Made by a program: the position numbers and the translations under genes
Source: Thiobacillus sp.
GTDB taxonomy: Bacteria; Pseudomonadota; Gammaproteobacteria; Burkholderiales; Thiobacillaceae
Assembly (NCBI GenBank): GCA_036568265.1
Contig: DATCSW010000011.1
Location: 293,349-357,348 of the forward strand
Length of the DNA: 64,000 bases
Direction of reading: 5' to 3'
In this document: positions 46,679-58,027 of the stretch, in pieces
Numbering within the stretch: the stretch's first letter is position 1
Layout of the letters: each line of letters opens with the position of its first letter
The notes under the pieces: model-generated
What the model saw: only the letters and a program-made list of their open reading frames with translations
Told to the model about the DNA's origin: nothing
Databases searched by the model: none

Positions 46679-46702
46679 AAAAAAACGCCCTGGCGGGCGT
46701 TT
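46679..46702 (-). terminator. Host tRNA-Ser terminator
   Basis: AAACGCCC-GCCA-GGGCGTTTTTTT downstream of the tRNA 3' half. Confidence 0.8.
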
Positions 46703-46715
46703 GGCGGGATGAATC

Positions 46716-46773
46716 TGGCGGAAGCGGTGAGATTCGAACTCACGGAGGACTCACATCCTCGCCGGTTTTCAAG
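46716..46773 (-). pseudogene. 3' half of host tRNA-Ser(TGA) (left att junction)
   Basis: CTTGAAA-ACCGG-CGAGGATGTGAGTCCTC-C-GTGAG-TTCGAAT-CTCAC-CGCTTCC-GCCA. Confidence 0.92.
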
Positions 46774-46894
46774 TAACTGGTAGGCTGATTTTACGCTACT
46801 GTGTGCTTCTTGCGTAAGCTTTACGAGTTCCATGGAAACAAGCATTTGCGCCGGATTTACATTTTGTGTAGCTTGTCATAACTTTACCGGAGCT

Positions 46895-46911
46895 GCTTAC
46901 GCGGTACTTAC
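46895..46911. repeat. Candidate integrase arm-type sites (left)
   Basis: GCTTACGCGGTACTTAC (11-bp period); the same motif recurs at the right end. Confidence 0.5.
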
Positions 46912-46932
46912 CGCACCTTCCGGAGAACAAAA

Positions 46933-48195
46933 ATGGCAAAGCTCACAAAGACCTACATCGACAAAATTACGCCACCGGCAAGCGGGTATGACCTGCATTG
47001 GGACGAGCAAGACCGAGGGTTCGGCTTGCGAGTCACCAAGGACGGGAAGCGCACCTACATCGCACAGGGGCGCGTCAATGGCAAGGAAGCCCGCATCAGC
47101 ATCGGGCCGCATGGTGTATTCACCGCCGACCAAGCCCGCGATGCTGCACGCGAACACCTGCGGAGCATGAGGCAGGGCATTGACCCGCGAACCGTTGCCA
47201 AGGAGCGTGCAGCCGAGACAGTGAGCCTCCGCGACGTGGCAGACGCATACAAGCGCGACCGCCCGCTAAAGGACAGCAGCAAGGCCGAGATTGAGCGCCA
47301 TGTGACCACAACCTTTGAGGCATGGCTCAAGAAGCCTATGGCGAGCATTAACCGCGAGGCGGTCACAAAGCGGTTCAACGAGATTAAGAATCACGGTCTG
47401 CGAGGCGACGGCCCCGCACCAGCGCAAGCCAATCAAGGTTTCAGCGTGCTTCGCGCCCTGTTCAATTACGCGATTCGGGAATACCGCAGGCCTGACGGCA
47501 CAGCGATTATCAAGGACAACCCTGTCGAGGTACTGCATAAGAAATGGGCACCGATCAAGGCCAAGACGACCCGCATACCTGACAGCAAGGTCGGTGCAGT
47601 GTGGTCAGCACTTCAGCAGTGGCGCGAGGTCGCCTACAACCGCGACACCCTAGCCAGCATTGACCTAGTCATGTTCCTAATGCTGACCGGCGCACGCATT
47701 GGCGAGGCGTCCGCGCTGACATGGGACAGGGTCAATCTGGACGAGGCATGGTGGCATCTGCCCGACCCCAAGAACCGCAACCCCGTCTGGCTTCCGCTGT
47801 CGTCGCAAGCGCTGGAACTGCTCAAGAGCCGCCCGCGTGTCAAGGGTAGCGACTTTGTTTTCACCAGTTGGGGCAAGTGCGGCCATATCCGCGACCCCCG
47901 CGACACCATGAACAATCTTAGCGAGGTTGCAGGGCTGCACCTGTCGCCCCACGACCTGCGCCGTACCTTCACGACGATAGGCATTGCCAACTGCGGCATT
48001 GACTTGTTCAAGGTGGAACTGCTGACGAACCATGTGCCCAAGACCGTAACCGAACGCCACTACCTTGAAACGCAGCAGCTTCAATACCTGCTGCCGCAGG
48101 TGCAACAGATAGCCGATTGGATCGAGGCGCAAGCTGTGGTCGCCAAGGTTCAAGCGGGGACAGCGCAGCAGCCCGAGGCGGAGCTGGTCGAATAA
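46933..48195 (+). CDS. int: Tyrosine integrase, P4-like with arm-binding domain
   Basis: GFGLRVTKDGKRTY N-domain; catalytic TGAR, HDLRR, TNH, RHY. Confidence 0.95.
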   Translation: MAKLTKTYIDKITPPASGYDLHWDEQDRGFGLRVTKDGKRTYIAQGRVNGKEARISIGPHGVFTADQARDAAREHLRSMRQGIDPRTVAKERAAETVSLRDVADAYKRDRPLKDSSKAEIERHVTTTFEAWLKKPMASINREAVTKRFNEIKNHGLRGDGPAPAQANQGFSVLRALFNYAIREYRRPDGTAIIKDNPVEVLHKKWAPIKAKTTRIPDSKVGAVWSALQQWREVAYNRDTLASIDLVMFLMLTGARIGEASALTWDRVNLDEAWWHLPDPKNRNPVWLPLSSQALELLKSRPRVKGSDFVFTSWGKCGHIRDPRDTMNNLSEVAGLHLSPHDLRRTFTTIGIANCGIDLFKVELLTNHVPKTVTERHYLETQQLQYLLPQVQQIADWIEAQAVVAKVQAGTAQQPEAELVE

Positions 48196-48482
48196 CCATA
48201 CTGGCGAGATAGCTATTTCATTCCGCGCCCGATTTGCGCCCACACAGACAGAGGCATAAAGTTCGCCTCACACGCGGCCCGGATGGTTTGATGAAAGTAA
48301 CGTGCGTCAAATTGCATCATCAAACTTAGGCCAGTAAAGTTGCCGCAAGTGCAGTGCAGTTACTCACAAGTTCCCGCATTGCACTGAAAGACTCAAGGGC
48401 ATCCCGCCCTTGGGCCGGTTGAAAAAACCGGCACGCCGACGTCATTGGCAGCGCTACCAGACGAGTTCTGGAGCCATACCAA

Positions 48483-48731
48483 ATGACCACAGCATCCAAG
48501 CTGCTTACGACTGCCGAAGCCGCCGCACATATCGGCGTGAAGCCCAACACCCTCGAACGCTGGCGCACTTACGGCACCGGCCCCGAGTTCATCAAGATCA
48601 ATCCGCATTCCTTGCGCTCGCCCATTCGCTACCGCGAATCCGTCCTTGAGGCGTGGCTGGCAGAGCGCACCTGCACCAACACCAGCCAGTATCCGCTGCC
48701 AAGCCGCAGCCCGGTACATGCGACCGTTTAG
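48483..48731 (+). CDS. AlpA/excisionase-like HTH protein
   Basis: LLTTAEAAAHIGVKPNTLERWR..GTGPEF, IRY....LEAWL. Confidence 0.85.
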   Translation: MTTASKLLTTAEAAAHIGVKPNTLERWRTYGTGPEFIKINPHSLRSPIRYRESVLEAWLAERTCTNTSQYPLPSRSPVHATV

Positions 48732-48845
48732 CGACCAGCGTACATCCAAAACGATGGCCTTGAACGATCAAACCCAATGCAGCCGCAGGACTTGCGTGAG
48801 TCAGTACGGCACGCAAAAGCCCAGCGTAAGGAATCAGGAAAAACC

Positions 48846-50606
48846 ATGAACCGTAATCAAGAAAACAGCGGCGAGGGTCGCAACACCCTGCCGCTGAAAG
48901 AGAACCGCCCCCTGAAAGAGCTGAACGCTAGTTTAGGAAACCTTGCCTCGGTGGGCTTTGACAACTTGCAGGCGACACAGCAGGCCGCGCAGTGTGGTCA
49001 GTACCCTACTGGCGGCGCAGTGCAGATCGTCGCCCCAGCCGACGCTGTGCAGCCCGCAGTCGGTGAAAAGCACAAGCGCAAAGACCCATTCTCCGGATTG
49101 TTTGGCGGTAACGAGCAACCAGCCGAACCCGCATGGGAAAAGCCGGTGGCGCTGCGTGCTGAGATTAGGGCGCTACCGTACCCGCTGGAAGTGTTGCCGC
49201 CTCTCATCCGCGATGCCATCAAAGAAGTTGAGCAATTCACCCAGGCACCAACCGCACTGATTGCGGCATCCGCACTGTCCGCAGTTTCGGCAACGGTGCA
49301 AGGGCTAGCCAGCGTTGAGCGCGGGACAGGTCTGCGCGGCCCTGCCTCCCTGTTCTTTCTCACGCTTGCGGTCAGCGGCGAACGCAAGAGCAGCGCCGAC
49401 AAGTATTTCACGCAAGCCATCCGCGAATGGGAAGCGCAGCAGGCTGAAGCGGCAAAACCGGCGCAAGCGGCATATCGTGCAGCAGTTACCGAATGGCAAT
49501 GCACCGAGGAAGGTTACAAGCAGGCTATCAAGCAGAGCGCGAAAGGTGGTATGCCTGACAAGTACGTTGCGGAGCAGCTAAAGCAGCTTGAATTCAACAG
49601 GCCGCTTGAACCACGCACCCCGACGATCCTTCGCATGGACGACACACCCGAAGCGCTTGGTGTTGCGCTAACCCGCTGGCCTGTGGCTGCTGTGTTGAGC
49701 AACGAGGCGGGGATTATCTTCGGTGCCCACGGCATGAATCCTGAATCGGTCATGCGGAATATGGCGGGCTTGAATGTGTGTTGGGATGGTGGGCACCTCC
49801 GACGCGACCGCACCTCTACACAGAGCATCAACGTTGAGGGGATGCGCCTGACGATGGGTTTGATGGTTCAGCCCGATACGCTGCAATCGTTCTTGAGCAA
49901 GCAAGGTGCATTGGCGCGGGGCATCGGCTTCTTTGCTCGGTTCTTGGTCGCACATCCAGAATCGACACAGGGGACGCGCTACTACCGCGAGCAAGCGCCG
50001 GGGGAGCCAGCGCTGACAGCGTTCAATGCGAGAGCCACGCAACTGCTCAACATCGGCGCTCAGGTAGATGTAGAAGGCAGGCTGGAAACAACCTATTTCG
50101 CACTATCACCCGAAGCGAAGAAAATCTGGGTCAGCTTCCATGACGAGGTGGAGGAAGAACTAGGCCGGGGGCGCGATTACTACGACGTTCAAGACGTAGC
50201 AAGCAAAGCGGCTGACAACGCCGCACGCCTCGCGGCCTGCCTGCACGCCTTCTGTGACCACACGCACACCATTTCATCTATCGGCGTGGAAAGCATGGAA
50301 GCCGGTACGGAGTTGATGCGCTGGTACTTGCATGAGGCGCTTCGGTTCTGCCGTCAGGTGGCGATTCCCGAAAGCCTGCGGAAAGCTGAACGGCTTGAGG
50401 AATGGCTGATTGGCAAGCTCTACAGCGGAATGGCGCTGGTGCCGACCCGCGAGGTTAAGCAGTTCGCACCGAGCGAACTACGCGGCGCGGCAGGCTCCGA
50501 AGCCTTCGCGGTGTTGGAAGACCATAACCGCGCCAAGCTCATTACCCAAGGCCCGAAGAAGTTCTATCGCTTGAACCCCGAGGTGGCGAATGAGTACCGG
50601 CGATAG
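48846..50606 (+). CDS. DUF3987/YfjI-family replication-associated NTPase
   Basis: YPLEVLP, P-loop-like AVSGERKSS, DDTPEAL, EAG, RGIGFFARFL; typical of satellite-like islands. Confidence 0.75.
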   Translation: MNRNQENSGEGRNTLPLKENRPLKELNASLGNLASVGFDNLQATQQAAQCGQYPTGGAVQIVAPADAVQPAVGEKHKRKDPFSGLFGGNEQPAEPAWEKPVALRAEIRALPYPLEVLPPLIRDAIKEVEQFTQAPTALIAASALSAVSATVQGLASVERGTGLRGPASLFFLTLAVSGERKSSADKYFTQAIREWEAQQAEAAKPAQAAYRAAVTEWQCTEEGYKQAIKQSAKGGMPDKYVAEQLKQLEFNRPLEPRTPTILRMDDTPEALGVALTRWPVAAVLSNEAGIIFGAHGMNPESVMRNMAGLNVCWDGGHLRRDRTSTQSINVEGMRLTMGLMVQPDTLQSFLSKQGALARGIGFFARFLVAHPESTQGTRYYREQAPGEPALTAFNARATQLLNIGAQVDVEGRLETTYFALSPEAKKIWVSFHDEVEEELGRGRDYYDVQDVASKAADNAARLAACLHAFCDHTHTISSIGVESMEAGTELMRWYLHEALRFCRQVAIPESLRKAERLEEWLIGKLYSGMALVPTREVKQFAPSELRGAAGSEAFAVLEDHNRAKLITQGPKKFYRLNPEVANEYRR

Positions 50607-50607
50607 G

Positions 50608-50742
50608 TGTAGCCGGTGTAGCGACTGTAGCTGTAGCAGGTGTAGCGAAAACGGTACGGGGGATTCTGAAAGTCCTAAATCTTCTTTATTTTGTACCTGC
50701 ATTGGGCAACCTGCTACGGCTACACCTGCTACAGCCGCTACA
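50608..50742. repeat. Inverted iteron arrays, candidate replication origin
   Basis: TGTAGC x5 (50608, 50617, 50626, 50632, 50641) facing GCTAC(A) x4 (50713, 50719, 50728, 50737) around an AT-rich spacer. Confidence 0.75.
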
Positions 50743-50879
50743 CCCTGCAAGGGGCAACGGCCAGCGCTGCAAACCATAGTGACGCAACAGACAAGTGCGC
50801 ATGACGTTTGTTAAGATGTGCGATGAAAATCAAAGCTGAAAGTTAAGAACATTCAATTTCTTAGAAAAAAGGAAGGTTC

Positions 50880-51836
50880 ATGCAAGAAAATACAACAAAA
50901 GAAATTGTGGCAGAAATTGTCAAGAAATATGCAGCTCGTGAAGGAAAGATAACTTCTATTTCTATAACCAAAAAATCCCTACCCGGTAAGCCATGGGTTA
51001 ATCCGCTGCTCAGAAAATTGAATAAACTCTCCAGCTTATTCAAAGTTCGTTTTACTTTTAGCCGATATGAGTCGACTGTTTATGCCTACTCGTCAAATCA
51101 AGACGACGACCTCTATAGTGAATACGGCAAAAATGAACTAATGATAAATTTTGGTTCTGGTGCATTTATGCACCCAAGATGGATTAATTACGATTTTCCG
51201 GGGCAGAGTTCTTATTACAAGAAACTACAAGGATTGCCAGGCAAAGACTTTATCCCGATAGATCTAACAAAAGACCTTCCACTTCAACTTGAAAGCGGCT
51301 CTGTTTCATTAATCTATTGCTCCCATACCATTGAGCATTTGCCGGAATCCACTGCATCAATATTCTTGTCTGAGTGCTTTAGGTTACTAAAGAAGGGCGG
51401 GTGCTTACGACTTGTTTTTCCAAACGTAGTATCTGACTATCAATTTGCTGAAATATGTTCAAGTCAGTCAAGCATTGACCAGAATATGAAAATTGAATCA
51501 ATAGTTGCTGCTGCCTATAATTCGTTCTCGCCGAGTGCAGAATATGAGATTCCAGAATTGCTTGATTTATTTGAGCGAGAAAACTACTCATATGAAAAAA
51601 TCCCAGAAGCCTTGAGACTCAAGGACTCGCTCCATGGCTCATTTAGGCCAGGAAACCCAGATTTTCATTTATCTTTTTGGTCTCACTCAAAATTATCAAA
51701 TCTATCTCGCGCCTGTGGTTTTGAAACTTATTTGCCCGGGCAACGAGGTAGGTCTTCTTACAAGCCATTCAACAACACTTGTGTCTTTGATACAACCGAG
51801 CCTCAATACTCTCTATATGGAGAATTGATCAAGTAA
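50880..51836 (+). CDS. Class I SAM-dependent methyltransferase (cargo)
   Basis: NFGSG motif I, YCSHTIEHL, ECFRLLKKGG.LRL..P; visibly AT-rich versus its flanks. Confidence 0.75.
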   Translation: MQENTTKEIVAEIVKKYAAREGKITSISITKKSLPGKPWVNPLLRKLNKLSSLFKVRFTFSRYESTVYAYSSNQDDDLYSEYGKNELMINFGSGAFMHPRWINYDFPGQSSYYKKLQGLPGKDFIPIDLTKDLPLQLESGSVSLIYCSHTIEHLPESTASIFLSECFRLLKKGGCLRLVFPNVVSDYQFAEICSSQSSIDQNMKIESIVAAAYNSFSPSAEYEIPELLDLFERENYSYEKIPEALRLKDSLHGSFRPGNPDFHLSFWSHSKLSNLSRACGFETYLPGQRGRSSYKPFNNTCVFDTTEPQYSLYGELIK

Positions 51837-51852
51837 ATATAAGTACTTTCAG

Positions 51853-51877
51853 AAGCGCTCGTGTTGAGCGCTTTTTT
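51853..51877. terminator. Terminator between convergent cargo genes
   Basis: AAGCGCTC-GTGTT-GAGCGCTTTTTT. Confidence 0.75.
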
Positions 51878-51887
51878 GTACCTAGGC

Positions 51888-52277
51888 TTATTTTATGCTG
51901 CGAGCCACCCCTAAGAACTTCCGGCGAGCGTAAAACTCGCAGCTCACATTGTTGGGGTTCCAGCCGTGGGCAGGTGCAGCCGCCTTCGCTTCCTTGAGCG
52001 TAGCGGCAGGGTTCGCATCGAGCCACGCCCACACAGCAGCGCACGCCCCGCCAGCCTTCGGACGCTTCACCCCGTTGCATTCTTCCTGCTCGACCTTCGG
52101 CCTTTTGCTTGCTGTGGTCACTTTCTTGACGGGTGCCACGCTCTCCTTCCAGCCGAACCGCACTTCGTCGCCGTTCTTATGCACCGTCAGGGCGACCCGT
52201 TCGCTCGGGATGCCAGCGGCGACACCAGCGCGACGGGCATTCACTCGCTTGGTGTAGGTCGTTGTCGATTGCTTCAT
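51888..52277 (-). CDS. Small basic hypothetical protein
   Basis: RBS CAGGAG; C-terminal helical RPKAGGACAAVWAWLD...GWNPNN...FY..RKF segment. Confidence 0.7.
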   Translation of the reverse strand: MKQSTTTYTKRVNARRAGVAAGIPSERVALTVHKNGDEVRFGWKESVAPVKKVTTASKRPKVEQEECNGVKRPKAGGACAAVWAWLDANPAATLKEAKAAAPAHGWNPNNVSCEFYARRKFLGVARSIK

Positions 52278-52589
52278 GACGTTCTCCTGTGTGTTGTTGA
52301 TGACAACGCAATTACAGGATGCATCTCCGAGAAGCGGCAAGCGATTAGTCCAGCAACCAAGGAACAGCAAATACCTTATTTGACGGACTGCGCCCGTAAG
52401 CGATTGGAACTGTTCCTGATATTCAGCGAGGGACGGCAGCGCGTAAGCCTATTGCACGCAAGCCGCAGGAATCGCCAGCAGCGCCAGCACACCGGCAAAG
52501 GACGACGCGACACACTACCTGTAGTGACTTTGACGGAATCAAACACTAGATGTAGTGCTTACCGGGTAAGACCGTCCTACCATGCGCTC

Positions 52590-52988
52590 ATGGCTACCAA
52601 CGCTCAACACCAAGCAAGCTACCGCGCCCGGCAAGCATCAGCGGGCAGCGTTCGGCTTGATACCCATATCTCGGCAGATGCCCATGCCGCCCTTGCCACG
52701 ATGGCAGAGCGCAAGGGTTTGAGCATTCGGGCAGCAGTCGAGACAGCGATTTTCACTTCCTCCACCACGTCACGAAAGGACGCAAGCATGAACCCCTCCC
52801 GACCAACCCAAATGACCGCAGGCGAAGCCGCTGAACTTGAATCGTTCAAGGCTGGACTGCCCAACGCAATCATCAGCGCCGAGCTTGACCAACGCGCCCA
52901 AGCAATGAACGGCGGCGCGGCTGGTGTAGCCCAAAAGGAACGCGTCACCGCCATGCTGCAAGCCAACAACCAGCATTTCAAGAAGTAA
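52590..52988 (+). CDS. Ribbon-helix-helix-like regulator with an in-frame internal start at 52788
   Basis: RLDTHISADAHAALATMAERKGLSIRAAVETAI resembles CopG/Arc RHH; GAAAGGA precedes ATG 52788. Confidence 0.55.
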   Translation: MATNAQHQASYRARQASAGSVRLDTHISADAHAALATMAERKGLSIRAAVETAIFTSSTTSRKDASMNPSRPTQMTAGEAAELESFKAGLPNAIISAELDQRAQAMNGGAAGVAQKERVTAMLQANNQHFKK

Positions 52989-53016
52989 CCCGAATCACCA
53001 ACCAAAAGGAACCGAT

Positions 53017-53553
53017 ATGAACACCCCTGAACTCCGCGAAACCCTTGCAGACGTAATCGCCAAGCACAACGAAGCCAATGGCGAATACACCCTGCTTCAC
53101 GCTGACTGGCACAGTGCAGCCGCCAAGGGTGAGGACGCGAAAGCCGACAAGCTCGAAATTGAAATTGAACGCACCCGCCGAATGATGCAACGCCTTGAAC
53201 TGCGCCGCGCTGCACTTGAGAAAGACATTGGCAGCGCCGAAGCAGTCGAACAAGCCGCCCGCGCTGCGAAGCTGAAACAGACTGCGGACAGCGTGCTTGC
53301 CCGTGCTGGAAAGCGCATCAGTGACATGCAAACGCTGGCAGCTACGCTCGCCAAGCTGACCGATGAACTGGAAAGCGATCTGCATCTTTGGAAGGAAGCG
53401 CGGCACTACTCCACGGCAGCAGGTGCAACCCCGGAAAGCTTCGCCACGCAGGCGAACGAACGCCAAGTGAGCCAGATTATTGAATCGCTCGGCATGTCAA
53501 AGATACGCACCGCGAACATTGCTAAAGAAATGAGCCGCATCAGCGTCCAGTAA
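53017..53553 (+). CDS. Coiled-coil hypothetical protein
   Basis: RBS AAAGGA; helical heptad-rich sequence. Confidence 0.75.
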   Translation: MNTPELRETLADVIAKHNEANGEYTLLHADWHSAAAKGEDAKADKLEIEIERTRRMMQRLELRRAALEKDIGSAEAVEQAARAAKLKQTADSVLARAGKRISDMQTLAATLAKLTDELESDLHLWKEARHYSTAAGATPESFATQANERQVSQIIESLGMSKIRTANIAKEMSRISVQ

Positions 53554-53621
53554 CGAACCGAACGGCGAAACCTGCGGCAGCTCAACGCTCCGCATAAGTG
53601 CCTGTCTCGTTGGAGCAACCA

Positions 53622-54392
53622 ATGACACGAACAGGCAAAGATTCCAGAAACATCACATCAGCACGCGCCGTCCGCGATGCACAGCGACGGGCTGAAATGC
53701 TCTCCCTCCGCCTTGAGGGTTTGACGCTGGAACAAATCGGCGAACGCATGGGCGTAGGCAAGCCTACCGTGTCGCGTGTCATCAGTAACGCACTGACTGC
53801 CCAAACCCGCGAACCAGCCGAAGAACTGCTAACCCTTGAGCTTGGGCGCTGTGACGTTCTGCTGACGGAGGCGATGCAGACCGTTAAGGCGTTTCACCCG
53901 CTGGTGTCCGCTGGTCGTGTGGTCAGCGCACCCATGCTGGACAACACGGGCCAGCCTGTACGCAACCCCGAGAGCGGCGACGTATTGACGCGGGTACTTG
54001 AGGACAAAGCGCCGAAGCTGGCAGCGATTGCCACAGCAGTTCGCGTCATGGAACGACGCGCCAAGCTGCTCGGCCTTGATGCTGCAACCAAGCTCCAGCA
54101 GGAAGTGCATGTCAGCACCGACGAGAAACCAGCGCACGACCTCCAGAAGCTGGACATGGACGAAATGCACCTCTACGGCTACCTGCTGGAGAAGATGCAC
54201 AACCCCGACAGCCCCGACCGCGTAGAGCGTCCCACGCTCCGCGACGAAGTGCGGGCCAAGCTGACCCCTGCCGAGATTGGCACTCTGCAAGTGATATTCG
54301 AGAAGCTGGATGTGCAGTACATCGCAGCCGACACCGTTAGCGGCCTGTATTCCCAACGGCCAGCACTACCCGCCCCAGAAGAAAAGGAATGA
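53622..54392 (+). CDS. HTH protein, terminase-small-subunit-like
   Basis: HTH LTLEQIGERMGVGKPTVSR, then ELGRCD.L and VMERRAKLLGLDA motifs resembling phage TerS-type proteins. Confidence 0.6.
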   Translation: MTRTGKDSRNITSARAVRDAQRRAEMLSLRLEGLTLEQIGERMGVGKPTVSRVISNALTAQTREPAEELLTLELGRCDVLLTEAMQTVKAFHPLVSAGRVVSAPMLDNTGQPVRNPESGDVLTRVLEDKAPKLAAIATAVRVMERRAKLLGLDAATKLQQEVHVSTDEKPAHDLQKLDMDEMHLYGYLLEKMHNPDSPDRVERPTLRDEVRAKLTPAEIGTLQVIFEKLDVQYIAADTVSGLYSQRPALPAPEEKE

Positions 54393-54394
54393 CC

Positions 54395-54853
54395 ATGTCC
54401 ATCACTACACACACCGACCAAGACAAGCGCCTGTATGTTGTCTTTGACGACGAGCGCACCGCGCCGGTAGAGCGTTACACCATCTGGCTAGTCAATGGGA
54501 GCAGAGATGTTCTTGCACAGCCCTGGGAGTCGCCCGGCGCAGTATGGAAGCGCGTGCTTGATACCGTTGCCGCAATGCGTGTGGCTATCACATTGAGCAG
54601 CGGCCATCTGTACTTCGCCACCGTCTTTGCGGACGTACAGGCCACCGAGCAGCACATGCAGACCATCATCAAGGATCGAGTTTCCGTCAAGCTCTATGAG
54701 ATGGCAGATCCGGCCAACAACAAGAACGCCCACGCTCGGGTGAAGGCGCTTGCCGCGCTTGCAGAACTGCACGGCCTGTACCAGCCCGAGCGTTACACCA
54801 TGCCCACGCTGGAACAGCTCAACGCCGCTATCGCCGACCACAAGGGGCAGTAA
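54395..54853 (+). CDS. Hypothetical protein
   Basis: RBS AAGGA; coupled to both neighbours; ARVKALAALAELHGL tail. Confidence 0.7.
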   Translation: MSITTHTDQDKRLYVVFDDERTAPVERYTIWLVNGSRDVLAQPWESPGAVWKRVLDTVAAMRVAITLSSGHLYFATVFADVQATEQHMQTIIKDRVSVKLYEMADPANNKNAHARVKALAALAELHGLYQPERYTMPTLEQLNAAIADHKGQ

Positions 54854-55071
54854 TGAGCGAGGGGCGCGACATTATCGAACCGGCCCAATGGCCGCAGCGC
54901 GACGACAGGCGGGTGCCGGTACTCGATACGAACACCAGCCCGCCTCGTGTGGTTCGTTACGTTGGCTGGCGTCCCTGCATACGGTGTGGCCGTAAGTTCT
55001 TCTCGCGTGACGTGGCAGGCGTGCGAATGTGCCTGCCCTGCAAGGACGGCCGACGCGTCGAAGAATGGTAA
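54853..55071 (+). CDS. Small zinc-finger protein
   Basis: CIRC...CLPC; TAATG overlap with the upstream gene. Confidence 0.7.
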   Translation: MSEGRDIIEPAQWPQRDDRRVPVLDTNTSPPRVVRYVGWRPCIRCGRKFFSRDVAGVRMCLPCKDGRRVEEW

Positions 55072-55179
55072 TCCCTCAACAACCACAAACACCACTCAGG
55101 CCGAGGCATAGCAAACCGTTCCTCGATAATCCAACGGGCGCAGCCGCAGGGCATCTCCTCCTTGCTTGATGCGACACTC

Positions 55180-55218
55180 AGTCCCGCCCAGCCTCACCGG
55201 CTCAGGCGGGATTGTTTT
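55180..55218 (+). terminator. Terminator of the element late-like operon
   Basis: AGTCCCGCC...GGCGGGATT-GTTTT hairpin. Confidence 0.6.
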
Positions 55219-55237
55219 GCGCTACCAGTTGCCGGGA

Positions 55238-55627
55238 TTACTCGAAGAATTCGATTTCCTTACGGTCGATCAAGCCACCGCTAGAAATGCAGATTTCAAA
55301 CCGTTTGAACAGCCCGAAGAACTCGTTAAGGTGCATGTCGAAGCGAACCCGGCGCACCTGCAACGGATTGCCTGAATCGACCGCCGCCTTGACGTTCTCG
55401 TAACCCTCGGCCTTCGTTAAGATGGCGGTGACATAGACCGTTTCGTCCTGCGTCCGCTCATGCACTTCCCCTGACCACATGGAGATGCCGACAAGCATCT
55501 CGTCAGCCTGAATCAGTCCCTTTTCCTCAAGGTACTTTTCCATCGTGTAGTTGTCGTGGCGGTCGGCAGAAGCTGTGCCTTTCATGTCGCCATATTGAAC
55601 GCTTGCGTAGAACTTTTCTTGTGCCAT
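55238..55627 (-). CDS. Hypothetical cargo protein (129 aa)
   Basis: RBS GGAGGA; FYASVQYGDMKGTASAD N-terminus; acidic. Confidence 0.7.
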   Translation of the reverse strand: MAQEKFYASVQYGDMKGTASADRHDNYTMEKYLEEKGLIQADEMLVGISMWSGEVHERTQDETVYVTAILTKAEGYENVKAAVDSGNPLQVRRVRFDMHLNEFFGLFKRFEICISSGGLIDRKEIEFFE

Positions 55628-55952
55628 GTGTCCTCCCGGTTTTTCGTGTTGATGAAGCTGGCATGGTACATCGCGCAATATCATTCTGAAAATCATCCGG
55701 CAGCAATCGGGCTAAATGGCCGCGTAAGCCGCTTTGAACATCATCAAGGCAAGTGTATTGAGGATTAGTCGAACGTCGCTTATACGAACTGTCGATTGCT
55801 GGCGGCATAGCGGGCGGCACAGCCAACGATCACCGCAAGGGTGCCGCACTGGTATTGGCTCGGGTGCTGCGCGGCCTGTAGCGGCGCTGTGTGCCGGGTA
55901 GTCGTGGGGCTGCAACGCTGGCCGCTGCTGGTGTTGCGGGAAGGTGCGCCAT

Positions 55953-56001
55953 GCTTACCGAGGCGCTTACCGCTTCGCTGCGGTGCTTACTATCTGCTTA
56001 C
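55953..56001. repeat. Candidate integrase arm-type sites (right)
   Basis: GCTTAC at 55953, 55965, 55985, 55996 (two pairs, 12 and 11 bp apart). Confidence 0.55.
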
Positions 56002-56120
56002 CGCTCGGTTTTGTTCTCGGCACTGAATGGCGCTGAAATTGCCCTTGCATGTGGTCAGTTGCGGGGCTTTTCTCTAGCTGCTTTGCTCTGCGCCGAACTG
56101 CGCTAAGTTGTTGTATTTAT

Positions 56121-56208
56121 TGGCGGAAGCTCAGGGATTCGAACCCTGGATACCTTGCGGTATGCTGGTTTTCAAGACCAGTGCAATCGACCACTCTGCC
56201 AAGCTTCC
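56121..56208 (-). tRNA. Element-borne complete tRNA-Ser(TGA)
   Basis: 88 nt: GGAAGCT/AGCTTCC, GCA/TGC, CTGGT-CTTGAAA-ACCAG, ATACC-GCAA-GGTAT variable arm, CAGGG-TTCGAAT-CCCTG, G73, CCA. Confidence 0.95.
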
Positions 56209-56228
56209 TACGTGCTACCTACAACAAA

Positions 56229-56267
56229 TTTCAAGACCGGTGCCTTAAACCACTCGGCCACGCTTCC
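56229..56267 (-). pseudogene. 5' half of host tRNA-Ser(TGA) (right att junction)
   Basis: GGAAGCG-TG-GCCGAGTGGTTTAAGGC-A-CCGGT-CTTGAAA; pairs perfectly with the 3' half at 46716-46773. Confidence 0.92.
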
Positions 56268-56269
56268 AA

Positions 56270-56306
56270 GGCGCGCATTGTAACGGTTTCATCCCTATTT
56301 GTGCGA
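56270..56306 (-). promoter_or_regulatory. Host tRNA-Ser promoter
   Basis: -10 TACAAT (56277-56282), GCGCGCC discriminator, weak -35 TCGCAC at 18-nt spacing. Confidence 0.6.
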
Positions 56307-56518
56307 GCGGAGCATTGTTTTGCATGATGGTTTTCGCTGCTGCAATTTCGTCAAAGAGTGTCGGTTTTTCATTGTTATGCATGAGGCATCTTTGCCGTGG
56401 CGGACGGAATGCAACATAAATTGGTGTAAAACCAATGTCTTGAAAATCAGACAGCGCCCTGCATAACTGGCATAAATGCTGCTGGACAGACGGTACGATA
56501 AAAATCTGGCACCTGACA

Positions 56519-58027
56519 ATGACTGAGTTGTTTGAAATGCTGAGTTCGATCACCCGTCGCAGAAAAAGTGTGGGCGGCTCTCCTTTTGCGTCGGTAAAGG
56601 CCACCGAAAAATGGTTGAAAAATTTGCCATCCGATTCGGATTACGATGCGCATCATGGCCTGGTCGAAGGGCTCGAGCGTTTTAACGCCGATCACGGAGA
56701 CGCTTCACTGGTCCGGATGAAGTGCCTGATGAAAATTGAAGCGGCCGGCTTGCCTCTGCAGCATGGAATCATCGAACAGTATTTGAAAAACCAGGCTGCA
56801 TTTCGACTGGCTCGCCAAGCCTTGTGGCGCGAGTCGTGGGTGTTTTGGTCGCTGTTGTCAGAAGCCTGGTTGTTCATGTTGAAACAAGCCTATCGCGGTA
56901 CGGCAAGTGCCGAACTCAGGCCGCATGCAGCCGAAATGGCGGCGCGCGCCATCCACTACGCGCGACTGGTGATGCGCTGGGATTATCATCAGGCGCGCAC
57001 CCCCCCCGGCTCGGCCTGGCGACGGATACACAAGGTTTATCGTTTGGTTGAACGCGATGGCTTTGCCACCCAGGAAGTTCTGATAGGTGGCGTCAAGACG
57101 CATTGTGCACGCGAGTATTCCCTTGCAGTCCTCATGGGCCTGGTCCATCCCGTGGGCTATCGCGCGCAGGAAATCGAATCCATTGCGGACATTGTTCAGT
57201 CATACCAACCCTTGCCACTGCCGAATCTGGTGCCGGAGCGGGACGTTCATACTCATTTGGTCGACTTGTCGTTAAGCGAAGGCGCTTGTGTGATGGAAGA
57301 CGACTGGGTGCAGGGTCGGCGCTTGCGTTATTTTGATTTGAGCACGCTGGTTTCCTACCTCAAAGACTTTACCCACGATACCGAACCGGATGGGGATAGC
57401 CTCCTGATGCGCCAGGTCGCCAGCCTGATCGAGCGCGGCGGGATTCGCCGCAATCGCGAGCGTACCCATCGGTTTGGTCGTGTATGGGTGGCAGCCGGCA
57501 TGAACAATATCCTGACCGCCCTTGCGAGCCCAGATCCGGAAAAAACACGCCCCGCACTTGAACCCTGGATGTTGCGCGATGAAAGCACCGAGGGCATGGG
57601 CTTTGCGTTGCCGGAAGAGCCGAATATGCCGCATGGACGGCTGATCGCCGTAAGTTGGGACCCGGCCGAAAGTGTCTGGCAATTGATGGCGATTCGCTGG
57701 AACCGCCAGGAAGATGGCCAGCACATGATCGGCACGCAGCGCCTGTCACGGCATCCCAAACGGGTGGAAATTTCACATGAATCGCAGGTGCCGCAGGCGG
57801 CCAGCGAAAAAATCTGGGCTGTTTTCCTGCCTATGACCCACACCGAGCAGGGCGTCAGCAACTTGCTGATACCGCAGAGCCATTATTTATTGGGTGCACC
57901 GATGGCGCTGCGTGATGGCGATGTGGTGTATCGCTTGCGCTTGGGCGAAATTCAGGAAAGCCATGAAGGCTGGCTGCGCGTGGGGATGGATATCATCGGG
58001 CGTGAGCAATTTGCAGAGGCGGCCTGA
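56519..58027 (+). CDS. Hypothetical protein, possibly a FimW/PilZ-like c-di-GMP receptor
   Basis: Helical N-region, then RNRER and W.LRDESTEGMG PilZ-like segments. Confidence 0.5.
   Translation: MTELFEMLSSITRRRKSVGGSPFASVKATEKWLKNLPSDSDYDAHHGLVEGLERFNADHGDASLVRMKCLMKIEAAGLPLQHGIIEQYLKNQAAFRLARQALWRESWVFWSLLSEAWLFMLKQAYRGTASAELRPHAAEMAARAIHYARLVMRWDYHQARTPPGSAWRRIHKVYRLVERDGFATQEVLIGGVKTHCAREYSLAVLMGLVHPVGYRAQEIESIADIVQSYQPLPLPNLVPERDVHTHLVDLSLSEGACVMEDDWVQGRRLRYFDLSTLVSYLKDFTHDTEPDGDSLLMRQVASLIERGGIRRNRERTHRFGRVWVAAGMNNILTALASPDPEKTRPALEPWMLRDESTEGMGFALPEEPNMPHGRLIAVSWDPAESVWQLMAIRWNRQEDGQHMIGTQRLSRHPKRVEISHESQVPQAASEKIWAVFLPMTHTEQGVSNLLIPQSHYLLGAPMALRDGDVVYRLRLGEIQESHEGWLRVGMDIIGREQFAEAA

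Follow-up and report, generated by a model that had tools for sequence, protein, structure and literature searches.

A small integrative island splits the tRNA-Ser(UGA) gene of a Thiobacillus and carries a complete cognate tRNA beside its crossover site

Here we describe a 9.5-kb island (46767–56235) in a 64,000-nucleotide stretch of a Thiobacillus sp. genome (assembly GCA_036568265.1, contig DATCSW010000011.1), referred to below as the window. We conclude that this integrative island very probably split the host's Ser(UGA) gene at a 7-bp core, left it unrepaired and substituted its own cognate tRNA. Such an event was the core of an original prediction made from the letters of the window alone, and the layout that it proposed recurs in close relatives of the island integrase. 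Coordinates of the individual features are collected in Table 1.

The two ends of the island are formed by the halves of the host gene. On the minus strand, positions 56267–56229 read as the 5′ half of a tRNA-Ser gene (GGAAGCGTGGCCGAGTGGTTTAAGGCACCGGTCTTGAAA), and positions 46773–46716 (CTTGAAAACCGGCGAGGATGTGAGTCCTCCGTGAGTTCGAATCTCACCGCTTCCGCCA, with the ends CTTGAAAACCGG...CGCTTCCGCCA) start with the same loop. Joining the halves in silico through CTTGAAA, the only sequence that they have in common, yielded a 90-nt tRNA-Ser(tga) in which ARAGORN paired all stems, in agreement with the original prediction. Identity among attL, attR and the rebuilt attB was confined to the 7-nt anticodon loop CTTGAAA, which places the crossover in the loop (sublocation classes for crossover within tRNA genes were reportedly set out by Williams in 2002). 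Just outside these seven positions attL and attR no longer match, which limits the common core to exactly 7 bp. No other direct repeat is present at the element ends and the host gene stays split: apart from the separate element gene, ARAGORN found no tRNA at either junction.

Uninterrupted versions of the locus were found both in relatives and in a metagenome. When queried with a 228-nt model of the uninterrupted site, four congeners (G011, G006, G017 and G023) were seen to carry an intact tRNA of the host type between the same flanks at 94–99% identity, and a contig from metagenome X2 joins 46766 to 56229 with 7 shared letters, as expected for the uninterrupted site. Read support for the occupied junctions, which the prediction had left to be checked, came from the probable source metagenome (X1), in which one Logan contig of 12.6 kb covers 46716–56700 with zero mismatches at a depth of 55.9, versus 56.9 for the other flank. 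A single contig at flank depth places both junctions on one molecule at chromosomal copy number; X1 is the same data as the assembly and so provides no independent confirmation. In the independent metagenome X7, an 11.9-kb contig has identical ends and different cargo.

Inside the island, 20 nt from the attL core, lies a complete 88-nt tRNA-Ser(UGA) gene with the anticodon of the disrupted host gene and the same letters in the 7-nt anticodon loop. The change in susceptibility to anticodon nucleases that the original prediction considered possible found no support. The compensatory differences from the host copy that had been predicted are all present: acceptor pair 7:66 changes from G-C to T-A, the D stem from GCC/GGC to GCA/TGC, and the anticodon stem from CCGGT/ACCGG to CTGGT/ACCAG. 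Of the seven tRNA genes that ARAGORN called in the window, one is tRNA-Ser(tga). The gene count that the prediction had called for covered the whole assembly (G000; 3.3 Mb, 37 contigs, 99.98% complete), in which the element copy is the single Ser(UGA) gene among 41 tRNA genes. In 7 of 8 other hosts, too, the tRNA of the resident element was the one full-length Ser(UGA) gene that was found. To our knowledge, UCA codons can be read only by a tRNA with a UGA anticodon, and the gene counts fit the proposed dependency on the element tRNA, which is probably needed for survival of the integrant. The only host examined with a spare copy was G046, an element carrier of the Methylophilaceae; its two small, near-identical contigs C125 and C22 (L058, L063) hold an intact tRNA-Ser(UGA) of another type, and these contigs may represent contamination or a second organism in the assembly.

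Comparison of seven distinct element tRNAs showed 100% of cells paired in the cloverleaf and compensatory changes at 13 of 25 pairs, a result equalled by 0 of 500 shuffles; judged by these patterns, the element tRNAs keep a functional fold. The element tRNA of the window is identical to that of an element in Brachymonas (L024) and has its acceptor, D and T arms in common with the Brachymonas host tRNA, and the Pelomonas element tRNA differs from that of its host mainly by one compensated acceptor-stem change. The element tRNAs thus resemble those of various hosts (Brachymonas-, Propionivibrio- and Pelomonas-like), as if exchanged repeatedly. At the attL of L022, L024 and L029, the split target itself resembles the element-type tRNAs (D arm GGCAGAGTGGTCGATTGCAC); it is either the native tRNA of these three hosts or an earlier replacement that was hit again.

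Next, a search of species-representative genomes returned 14 loci with relatives of the integrase. The swap layout was also found in L020, L021, L022 and L029 (Rhodocyclales, Dechloromonas, Propionivibrio; L029 is P. soli), L024, L025 (Accumulibacter), L027 (Methylophilaceae), L031, and L033 with L040 (Pelomonas). In all, at least ten related elements, with integrases 70–95% identical to that of the window, have this layout, and their hosts belong to the Rhodocyclales, Comamonadaceae, Sphaerotilaceae and Methylophilaceae. All share one order: host promoter, 5′ half, CTTGAAA, a short spacer, a complete tRNA-Ser(tga), CCA-ATAAAWACAA, the element interior, int, P arm, CTTGAAA and the host 3′ half. 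The spacer is 20 nt long in one subgroup (TTTGTTGTAGGTAG...), 9 nt in L025, L027 and L031 (ACAGTTGTA) and 17 nt in Pelomonas (TTTGTCGTAAGTTCATT). In the nine other swap-type copies examined, the element tRNA has the anticodon of the target and lies in the same orientation at a distance of 9–20 nt from the core; in each of them the host gene remains split. Apart from the sister element described below, every close relative with both ends available shows the swap, which rules out a one-off capture.

The targets themselves vary considerably. Five different anticodon stems (CCGGT, CTGGT, GCAGT, ACAGT and CTAGT) were found across hosts, the acceptor stems vary too, and only RGT-CTTGAAA-ACY is constant, which fits the predicted minimal homology and wide host range. 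In 8 of 8 cases with both ends, the two halves covary in the acceptor and anticodon stems, are complementary and rejoin. The L024 element, with an integrase 94–95% identical to that of the window and an identical tRNA, resides in another bacterial family, and this similarity across families implies recent transfer. An integrase search in 400 genomes of the order gave no close homologue, and the element family is rare among species representatives. A more distant integrase (47% identical) in a Desulfobacteraceae metagenome-assembled genome (L032 7690-7900(-)) has as its neighbour a lone tRNA-Leu(UAA) 3′ half, which begins with the anticodon loop (CTTAAAA); the contig stops short of the other junction, so swap and repair look alike there. 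A match to the attL pattern in G157 (L097 1461-1550(-)) was discarded as a false positive: it is an ordinary tRNA-Ser(UGA) whose loop, stem and variable-arm start (CTTGAAAACTGTCGTAGG) nearly match the 9-nt-spacer junction CTTGAAAACAGTTGTAGG. The element spacer may be a relic of the former 3′ tRNA segment of a classical attP.

The original prediction also held that the target is not repaired. This is true of the window element and does not extend to the whole integrase family. A sister element of about 12.6 kb in Propionivibrio sp. (G043; L035 1430-1600(+), L042/L023), with an integrase 79% identical to that of the island, shows classical 3′ repair: at the loop, the host 5′ half continues into an element-borne 3′ half, the element is bounded by a 56-nt direct repeat, and both the spacer and an element 5′ half are missing. 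Both the classical and the swap layout therefore occur within one integrase family. The integrase tree is too poorly resolved to polarise the canonical form of G043 as ancestral or derived, and the two layouts may interconvert. The element tRNA's own anticodon loop provides a second copy of the integrase target, at a core-to-core distance of 59 bp from that of attP, and the swap arrangement could become a canonical attP such as that of G043 if the DNA from one copy to the other were deleted.

Two genomes carry the element-type tRNA in place and no integrase. In the congener G008 (L015 19342-19480(-)), a 5′ half, CTTGAAA and ACAGTTGTA are followed by an element-type tRNA, and host flank starts directly after the CCA; 87 of 88 positions of this tRNA match the L027/L031 element tRNA, the one difference being a host-type base in the 3′ acceptor strand, and no integrase homologue was found in the genome. 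G398, a 1.3-Mb genome from another family (L096 1404-1545(-)), has a shortened 5′ half, CTTGAAA, TTTGTTGTAGGTAGTAAAAAG, a tRNA 98% identical to the window's element tRNA and then host DNA; neither an integrase nor a second match to the element-tRNA query was found in this genome. Both loci are best read as scars, left when the element tRNA recombined with the displaced 3′ half and the island was lost while the foreign tRNA stayed. The scars keep the element tRNA without the element, so a foreign tRNA can become permanent, and the claim that anything but precise excision would be lethal does not hold.

Evidence of expression came from two metatranscriptome runs of a wastewater sample, in which a 143-nt unitig spans 56116–56258 with 1 mismatch. 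Included in it are the element tRNA, the spacer and 30 nt of a 5′ half of the host type, at depths of 570 and 988, versus 84 and 0 for adjacent element sequence. Transcription therefore continues from the host half across the spacer to the element tRNA, as the proposed capture of the host promoter predicts. The predicted fold of this precursor retains the element cloverleaf.

On the basis of these results we propose the following course of events. The island would recombine, presumably through its own integrase, with the host's only tRNA-Ser(UGA) gene, the CTTGAAA overlap lying in the anticodon loop of that gene. The attP of the island would lack the usual 3′ tRNA segment and instead hold a complete cognate tRNA 20 nt from the core, before the candidate P′ sites. 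Integration would leave two dead host halves, and the element tRNA would come to lie immediately downstream of the host promoter and 5′ half. The locus would then be transcribed as a 5′ half–spacer–tRNA precursor, matured presumably by RNase P, and the element tRNA is predicted to be the cell's sole reader of UCA. Precise excision would restore the host gene, whereas loss of the element by recombination between its tRNA and the displaced 3′ half would fix the foreign tRNA.

Several observations weigh against this proposal. The original prediction set the host gene between its promoter and its terminator; the terminator was confirmed, and a scan for the sigma-70 consensus upstream of the host 5′ half called no promoter, though a TACAAT motif, followed by GCGCGCC and 9 nt upstream of the 5′ half, forms a block conserved in congeners. 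A promoter in the P arm may be used in the circular form. The RNA data are from wastewater metatranscriptomes and, at 142/143 identity, from another strain; the contigs are strandless, and their mean depth mixes precursor with mature tRNA and may be dominated by the latter. Most compared genomes, including that of the window, are apparently metagenome-derived, so that an 'only copy' could reflect missing contigs, G000 being 99.98% complete. Finally, neither an attP circle nor a restored attB of this strain was seen in the contigs of the source sample, which drop rare variants, and the element depth equals the chromosome depth, giving no direct sign of mobility.

The last two points would also suit a fixed fossil, that is, the same integration in a locus from which excision is now impossible and which is kept because the cell needs the element tRNA. 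Decay does occur in the family, L029 showing an integrase match over residues 11–250 only and a 1-nt deletion beside the attR core, and the scars show the tRNA outliving its element. The open reading frames (ORFs) for integrase, excisionase and helicase are, however, intact in the window, the two 7-bp cores are likewise undamaged and conserved, as are the two arms, and the closely related Brachymonas element points to recent transfer. We therefore regard a fossil as unlikely, though deserving some weight, and a presumably still mobile island as the better account.

Two further explanations question the role of the tRNA itself. It could be ordinary cargo, supplying codons or countering a defence, that happens to lie near attP, with non-repair an accident of a degenerate attP. 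tRNA genes are common on mobile elements and the G043 sister repairs its target, but a chance arrangement fits poorly with nine of nine other swap copies that agree with the target in anticodon and orientation, lie 9–20 nt from the core and have a split host gene, or with an element tRNA that is the sole Ser(UGA) gene in most hosts; this makes the cargo explanation very improbable. It is scarcely credible that the 88-nt tRNA is native, with the halves being relics of an old pseudogene or another event, or that the junctions are assembly chimeras formed at tRNA repeats. Metagenome assemblers do break at such repeats, and the element unitig begins at 46716, within the tRNA 3′ half. A native element tRNA is nevertheless excluded by the empty sites of the congeners, whose intact host-type tRNA lies between the same flanks, and a chimera by the one Logan contig that holds both junctions, with 430 nt of unique host flank, at the depth of the other flank. 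The 7 nt shared at the junctions are too few for a k-mer chimera, and the same layout is present in independent assemblies.

Between its two ends the island encodes an arm-binding tyrosine integrase, an AlpA/excisionase-like protein and a DUF3987 helicase/primase-like protein, followed by more variable genes. The methyltransferase-like gene has no counterpart in the elements of relatives (L020–L033) and is restricted to this copy; the low-GC segment 50800–51900 is absent from the related elements examined and thus appears to be recently acquired cargo. Among the four ORFs between 51966 and 54853, matches were to HTH_23/Sigma70_r4 and phrog_645, none of which is informative as to function, and PADLOC and NCBIfam gave no match to a defence or other cargo function. 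PHROGs recognised an integrase, an excisionase, a helicase, a methyltransferase and an HTH protein in the island and no phage structural gene; with this content and a size of 9.5 kb, the island does not qualify as a temperate phage. The best match among phage integrases was at most 31% identical to the island integrase, and a search for plasmid relatives gave none, its matches being confined to the tRNA halves.

P4-like and PICI-like satellites are small and consist of int, an alpA-like gene and a primase/helicase module, followed by variable cargo, together with genes by which they hijack the capsid or packaging of a helper. The island resembles them in size and in the order int, HTH_17, DUF3987 and variable cargo, and looks like a small, possibly satellite-like integrative element. 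Searches with PHROGs, PADLOC and NCBIfam recognised no capsid-redirection or packaging genes in the island, four ORFs of which gave no informative match, and we know of no helper phage.

Repeats of the SGTAAGY type flank the core on both sides, and their conserved positions suggest that they act as arm-type sites of the integrase. The P′ cluster lies 120–170 nt past the 3′ end of the element tRNA; should the repeats indeed be arm-type sites, attP would enclose the tRNA gene, with the core on one side of it and the P′ sites on the other. We also considered TTACGC-N18-TAAAAT, upstream of attR, as a P-arm promoter for the circular form. This candidate failed the consensus scan, and its conserved parts overlap GCTTAC/GTAAA repeats that are likelier to be arm sites.

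Table 1 Features of the island and the split tRNA-Ser(UGA) locus (window coordinates).
Feature	Position	Strand	Evidence or remark
Intrinsic terminator of the host tRNA-Ser gene	46683..46702	-	8-bp stem and T run; now behind the displaced 3′ half
Displaced host 3′ half of tRNA-Ser(UGA), anticodon loop to CCA	46716..46773	-	Rejoins with the 5′ half; type as in the intact genes of congeners
attR core CTTGAAA	46767-46773	-	
P arm of attP, between core and int	46774..46932	-	Core-proximal CCTACCAGTTA; sequence conserved in L020-L024, L026, L029
Candidate P-arm repeats SGTAAGY	46895-46901, 46906-46912	-	Motif positions conserved in relatives
Tyrosine integrase, 420 aa, N-terminal arm-binding domain (P4/DUF4102 type)	46933..48195	+	Pfam Arm-DNA-bind_3 5e-15, Phage_integrase 1e-15; phrog_1 9e-50
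AlpA/excisionase-like HTH protein, 82 aa	48483..48731	+	Pfam HTH_17 5e-9; phrog_66 'excisionase and transcriptional regulator' 1e-10
DUF3987 replicative helicase/primase-like protein, 609 aa	48777..50606	+	Pfam DUF3987 1e-88; phrog_2373 DNA helicase 1e-61
SAM methyltransferase-like cargo gene, low GC	50880..51836	+	Pfam Methyltransf_11 4e-6; GC 0.38-0.41
Four ORFs, family-conserved in part	51966-52988, 53017-53553, 53598-54392 (HTH protein), 54389-54853	+	Conserved blocks with L020-L029
Candidate P′-arm repeat cluster, GGTAAGC and variants	55953..56002	-	Motifs at 55953, 55965, 55996; same offsets in L020-L031
Complete element tRNA-Ser(UGA), 88 nt	56121..56208	-	ARAGORN; Rfam tRNA 58.7 bits, E 8e-11
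Spacer between core and element tRNA, 20 nt, core-proximal P′ side	56209..56228	-	TTTGTTGTAGGTAGCACGTA; kept in L020, L021, L022, L024, L029
attL core CTTGAAA	56229-56235	-	
Host 5′ half of tRNA-Ser(UGA)	56229..56267	-	Ends with the anticodon loop
Candidate -10-like TACAAT of the host tRNA promoter	56277..56282	-	Kept in congeners as TACAATGCGCGCC

The principle of splitting a tRNA gene and replacing it is already published. Guerrero-Bustamante and Hatfull (mBio 2024; PMC10865867) described 'tRNA-dependent lysogeny' in actinobacteriophages (Fionnbharth/K4, cluster L, Cain, BrutonGaster, OneUp, Mollymur and Gaia), in which a tyrosine integrase uses an 8–17 bp core in a single-copy tRNA gene that is not reconstructed, and showed experimentally that a phage-borne cognate tRNA is required for viable lysogens. 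They also reported classical repair by closely related integrases (Boilgate/Ximenita) and suggested wider use of the phenomenon, citing the Lactobacillus johnsonii prophage Lj965 (PMC10865867). The island shares with these phages an arm-binding tyrosine integrase, an attB over a single-copy tRNA gene, a cognate replacement tRNA, a core (7 bp in the island) too short to rebuild the tRNA, and kin with classical repair, here G043. Their carriers are temperate phages of Actinobacteria, whereas the island is a 9.5-kb element of Betaproteobacteria without structural genes. In Fionnbharth the tRNA is found at another place in the phage genome, where it overlaps gene 37 and is served by a demonstrated promoter of its own (PMC10865867), whereas the island tRNA lies within attP, 20 nt from the core, and is apparently read from the host promoter; likewise, the requirement for the tRNA, experimental in the phages, is for the island suggested by gene content. 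A study of Sinorhizobium meliloti (PMC11476347) reports Lo5R7ANS-like prophages in which tRNA-Leu(UAG) is inactivated and a replacement of foreign appearance is carried; these are full prophages and differ from the island in the tRNA concerned and in bacterial class.

Classical islands and prophages of the anticodon-loop type (Islander database, PMC4383910) have in common with the island a 7-nt loop overlap, int beside attP and tRNA-derived boundaries, and the G043 sister is exactly of this type. Their attP holds a 3′ tRNA segment that gives a hybrid target and a long direct repeat, in contrast to the 7-bp repeat and split target of the island. Four points appear to go beyond the two papers on tRNA replacement: a non-phage carrier in Betaproteobacteria, a tRNA within attP that lies 9–20 nt from the crossover and is transcribed from the host promoter, scars without an integrase as a record of permanent replacement, and a classical 3′-repair sister element at 79% integrase identity.

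The strategy of splitting a tRNA gene and bringing a spare is thus not limited to actinobacteriophages and extends to small satellite-like islands in several families of Betaproteobacteria. The compact order of core, spacer and tRNA permits borrowing of the host promoter, and target recognition reduced to the anticodon loop and a loosely conserved stem fits a broad host range. Because the whole tRNA lies in attP beside the crossover, each integration would put a foreign tRNA-Ser(UGA) under the host promoter. The scars are direct genomic evidence that mobile elements can permanently swap an essential host tRNA gene for a foreign one, a route of tRNA gene turnover that is seldom considered. It is conceivable, and we put it forward tentatively as falling somewhat short of probable, that such islands act as vectors of horizontal tRNA-gene replacement, the foreign tRNA being fixed by recombination between the tRNA and the 3′ half. 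Island finders that rely on a long tRNA-derived direct repeat will probably miss elements of this kind, and the int–attP–tRNA cassette may prove useful in Betaproteobacteria as an integration vector that selects for itself, along the lines proposed for mycobacteria.

Finally, loci in G002, G009, G015 and G031 with a 5′ half plus a full tRNA were considered as further scars and rejected, as they contain a dispersed structured repeat instead. This repeat of about 62–85 nt lies in the anticodon loop of the 5′ half of an upstream tRNA-Ser(UGA) or tRNA-Phe(GAA) (CTTG^AAAA, ACTG^AAAA) in many genomes of the same family, for example at L087 300-860(-), L091 180-860(-), L093 200-700(+), L013 19240-19480(-) and L014 347-577(+), and is absent from the genome of the window. 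Its core consists of AGTGCAGGCTAAC, a hairpin, GTTAAGCC, a second hairpin and GGCCGGAACT. The repeat is followed by the 3′ strand of the anticodon stem, a linker of about 25 nt and then an intact tRNA or further identical units; the resulting arrays repeat every 145 nt or so and reach a length of at least 4 units. The core is dispersed in 80 of 201 genomes of the family and is also found in hairpins just past the stop codons of ORFs, where the ORF end is duplicated after the repeat; more generally, the 5′ flank of the repeat recurs behind it. A search of Rfam gave no match to it, and RNAalifold showed covariation at 7 of 19 pairs; the repeat may represent a new structured RNA or, alternatively, a small element that targets hairpin loops and makes the tRNA whole again by means of a 5′ half of its own.

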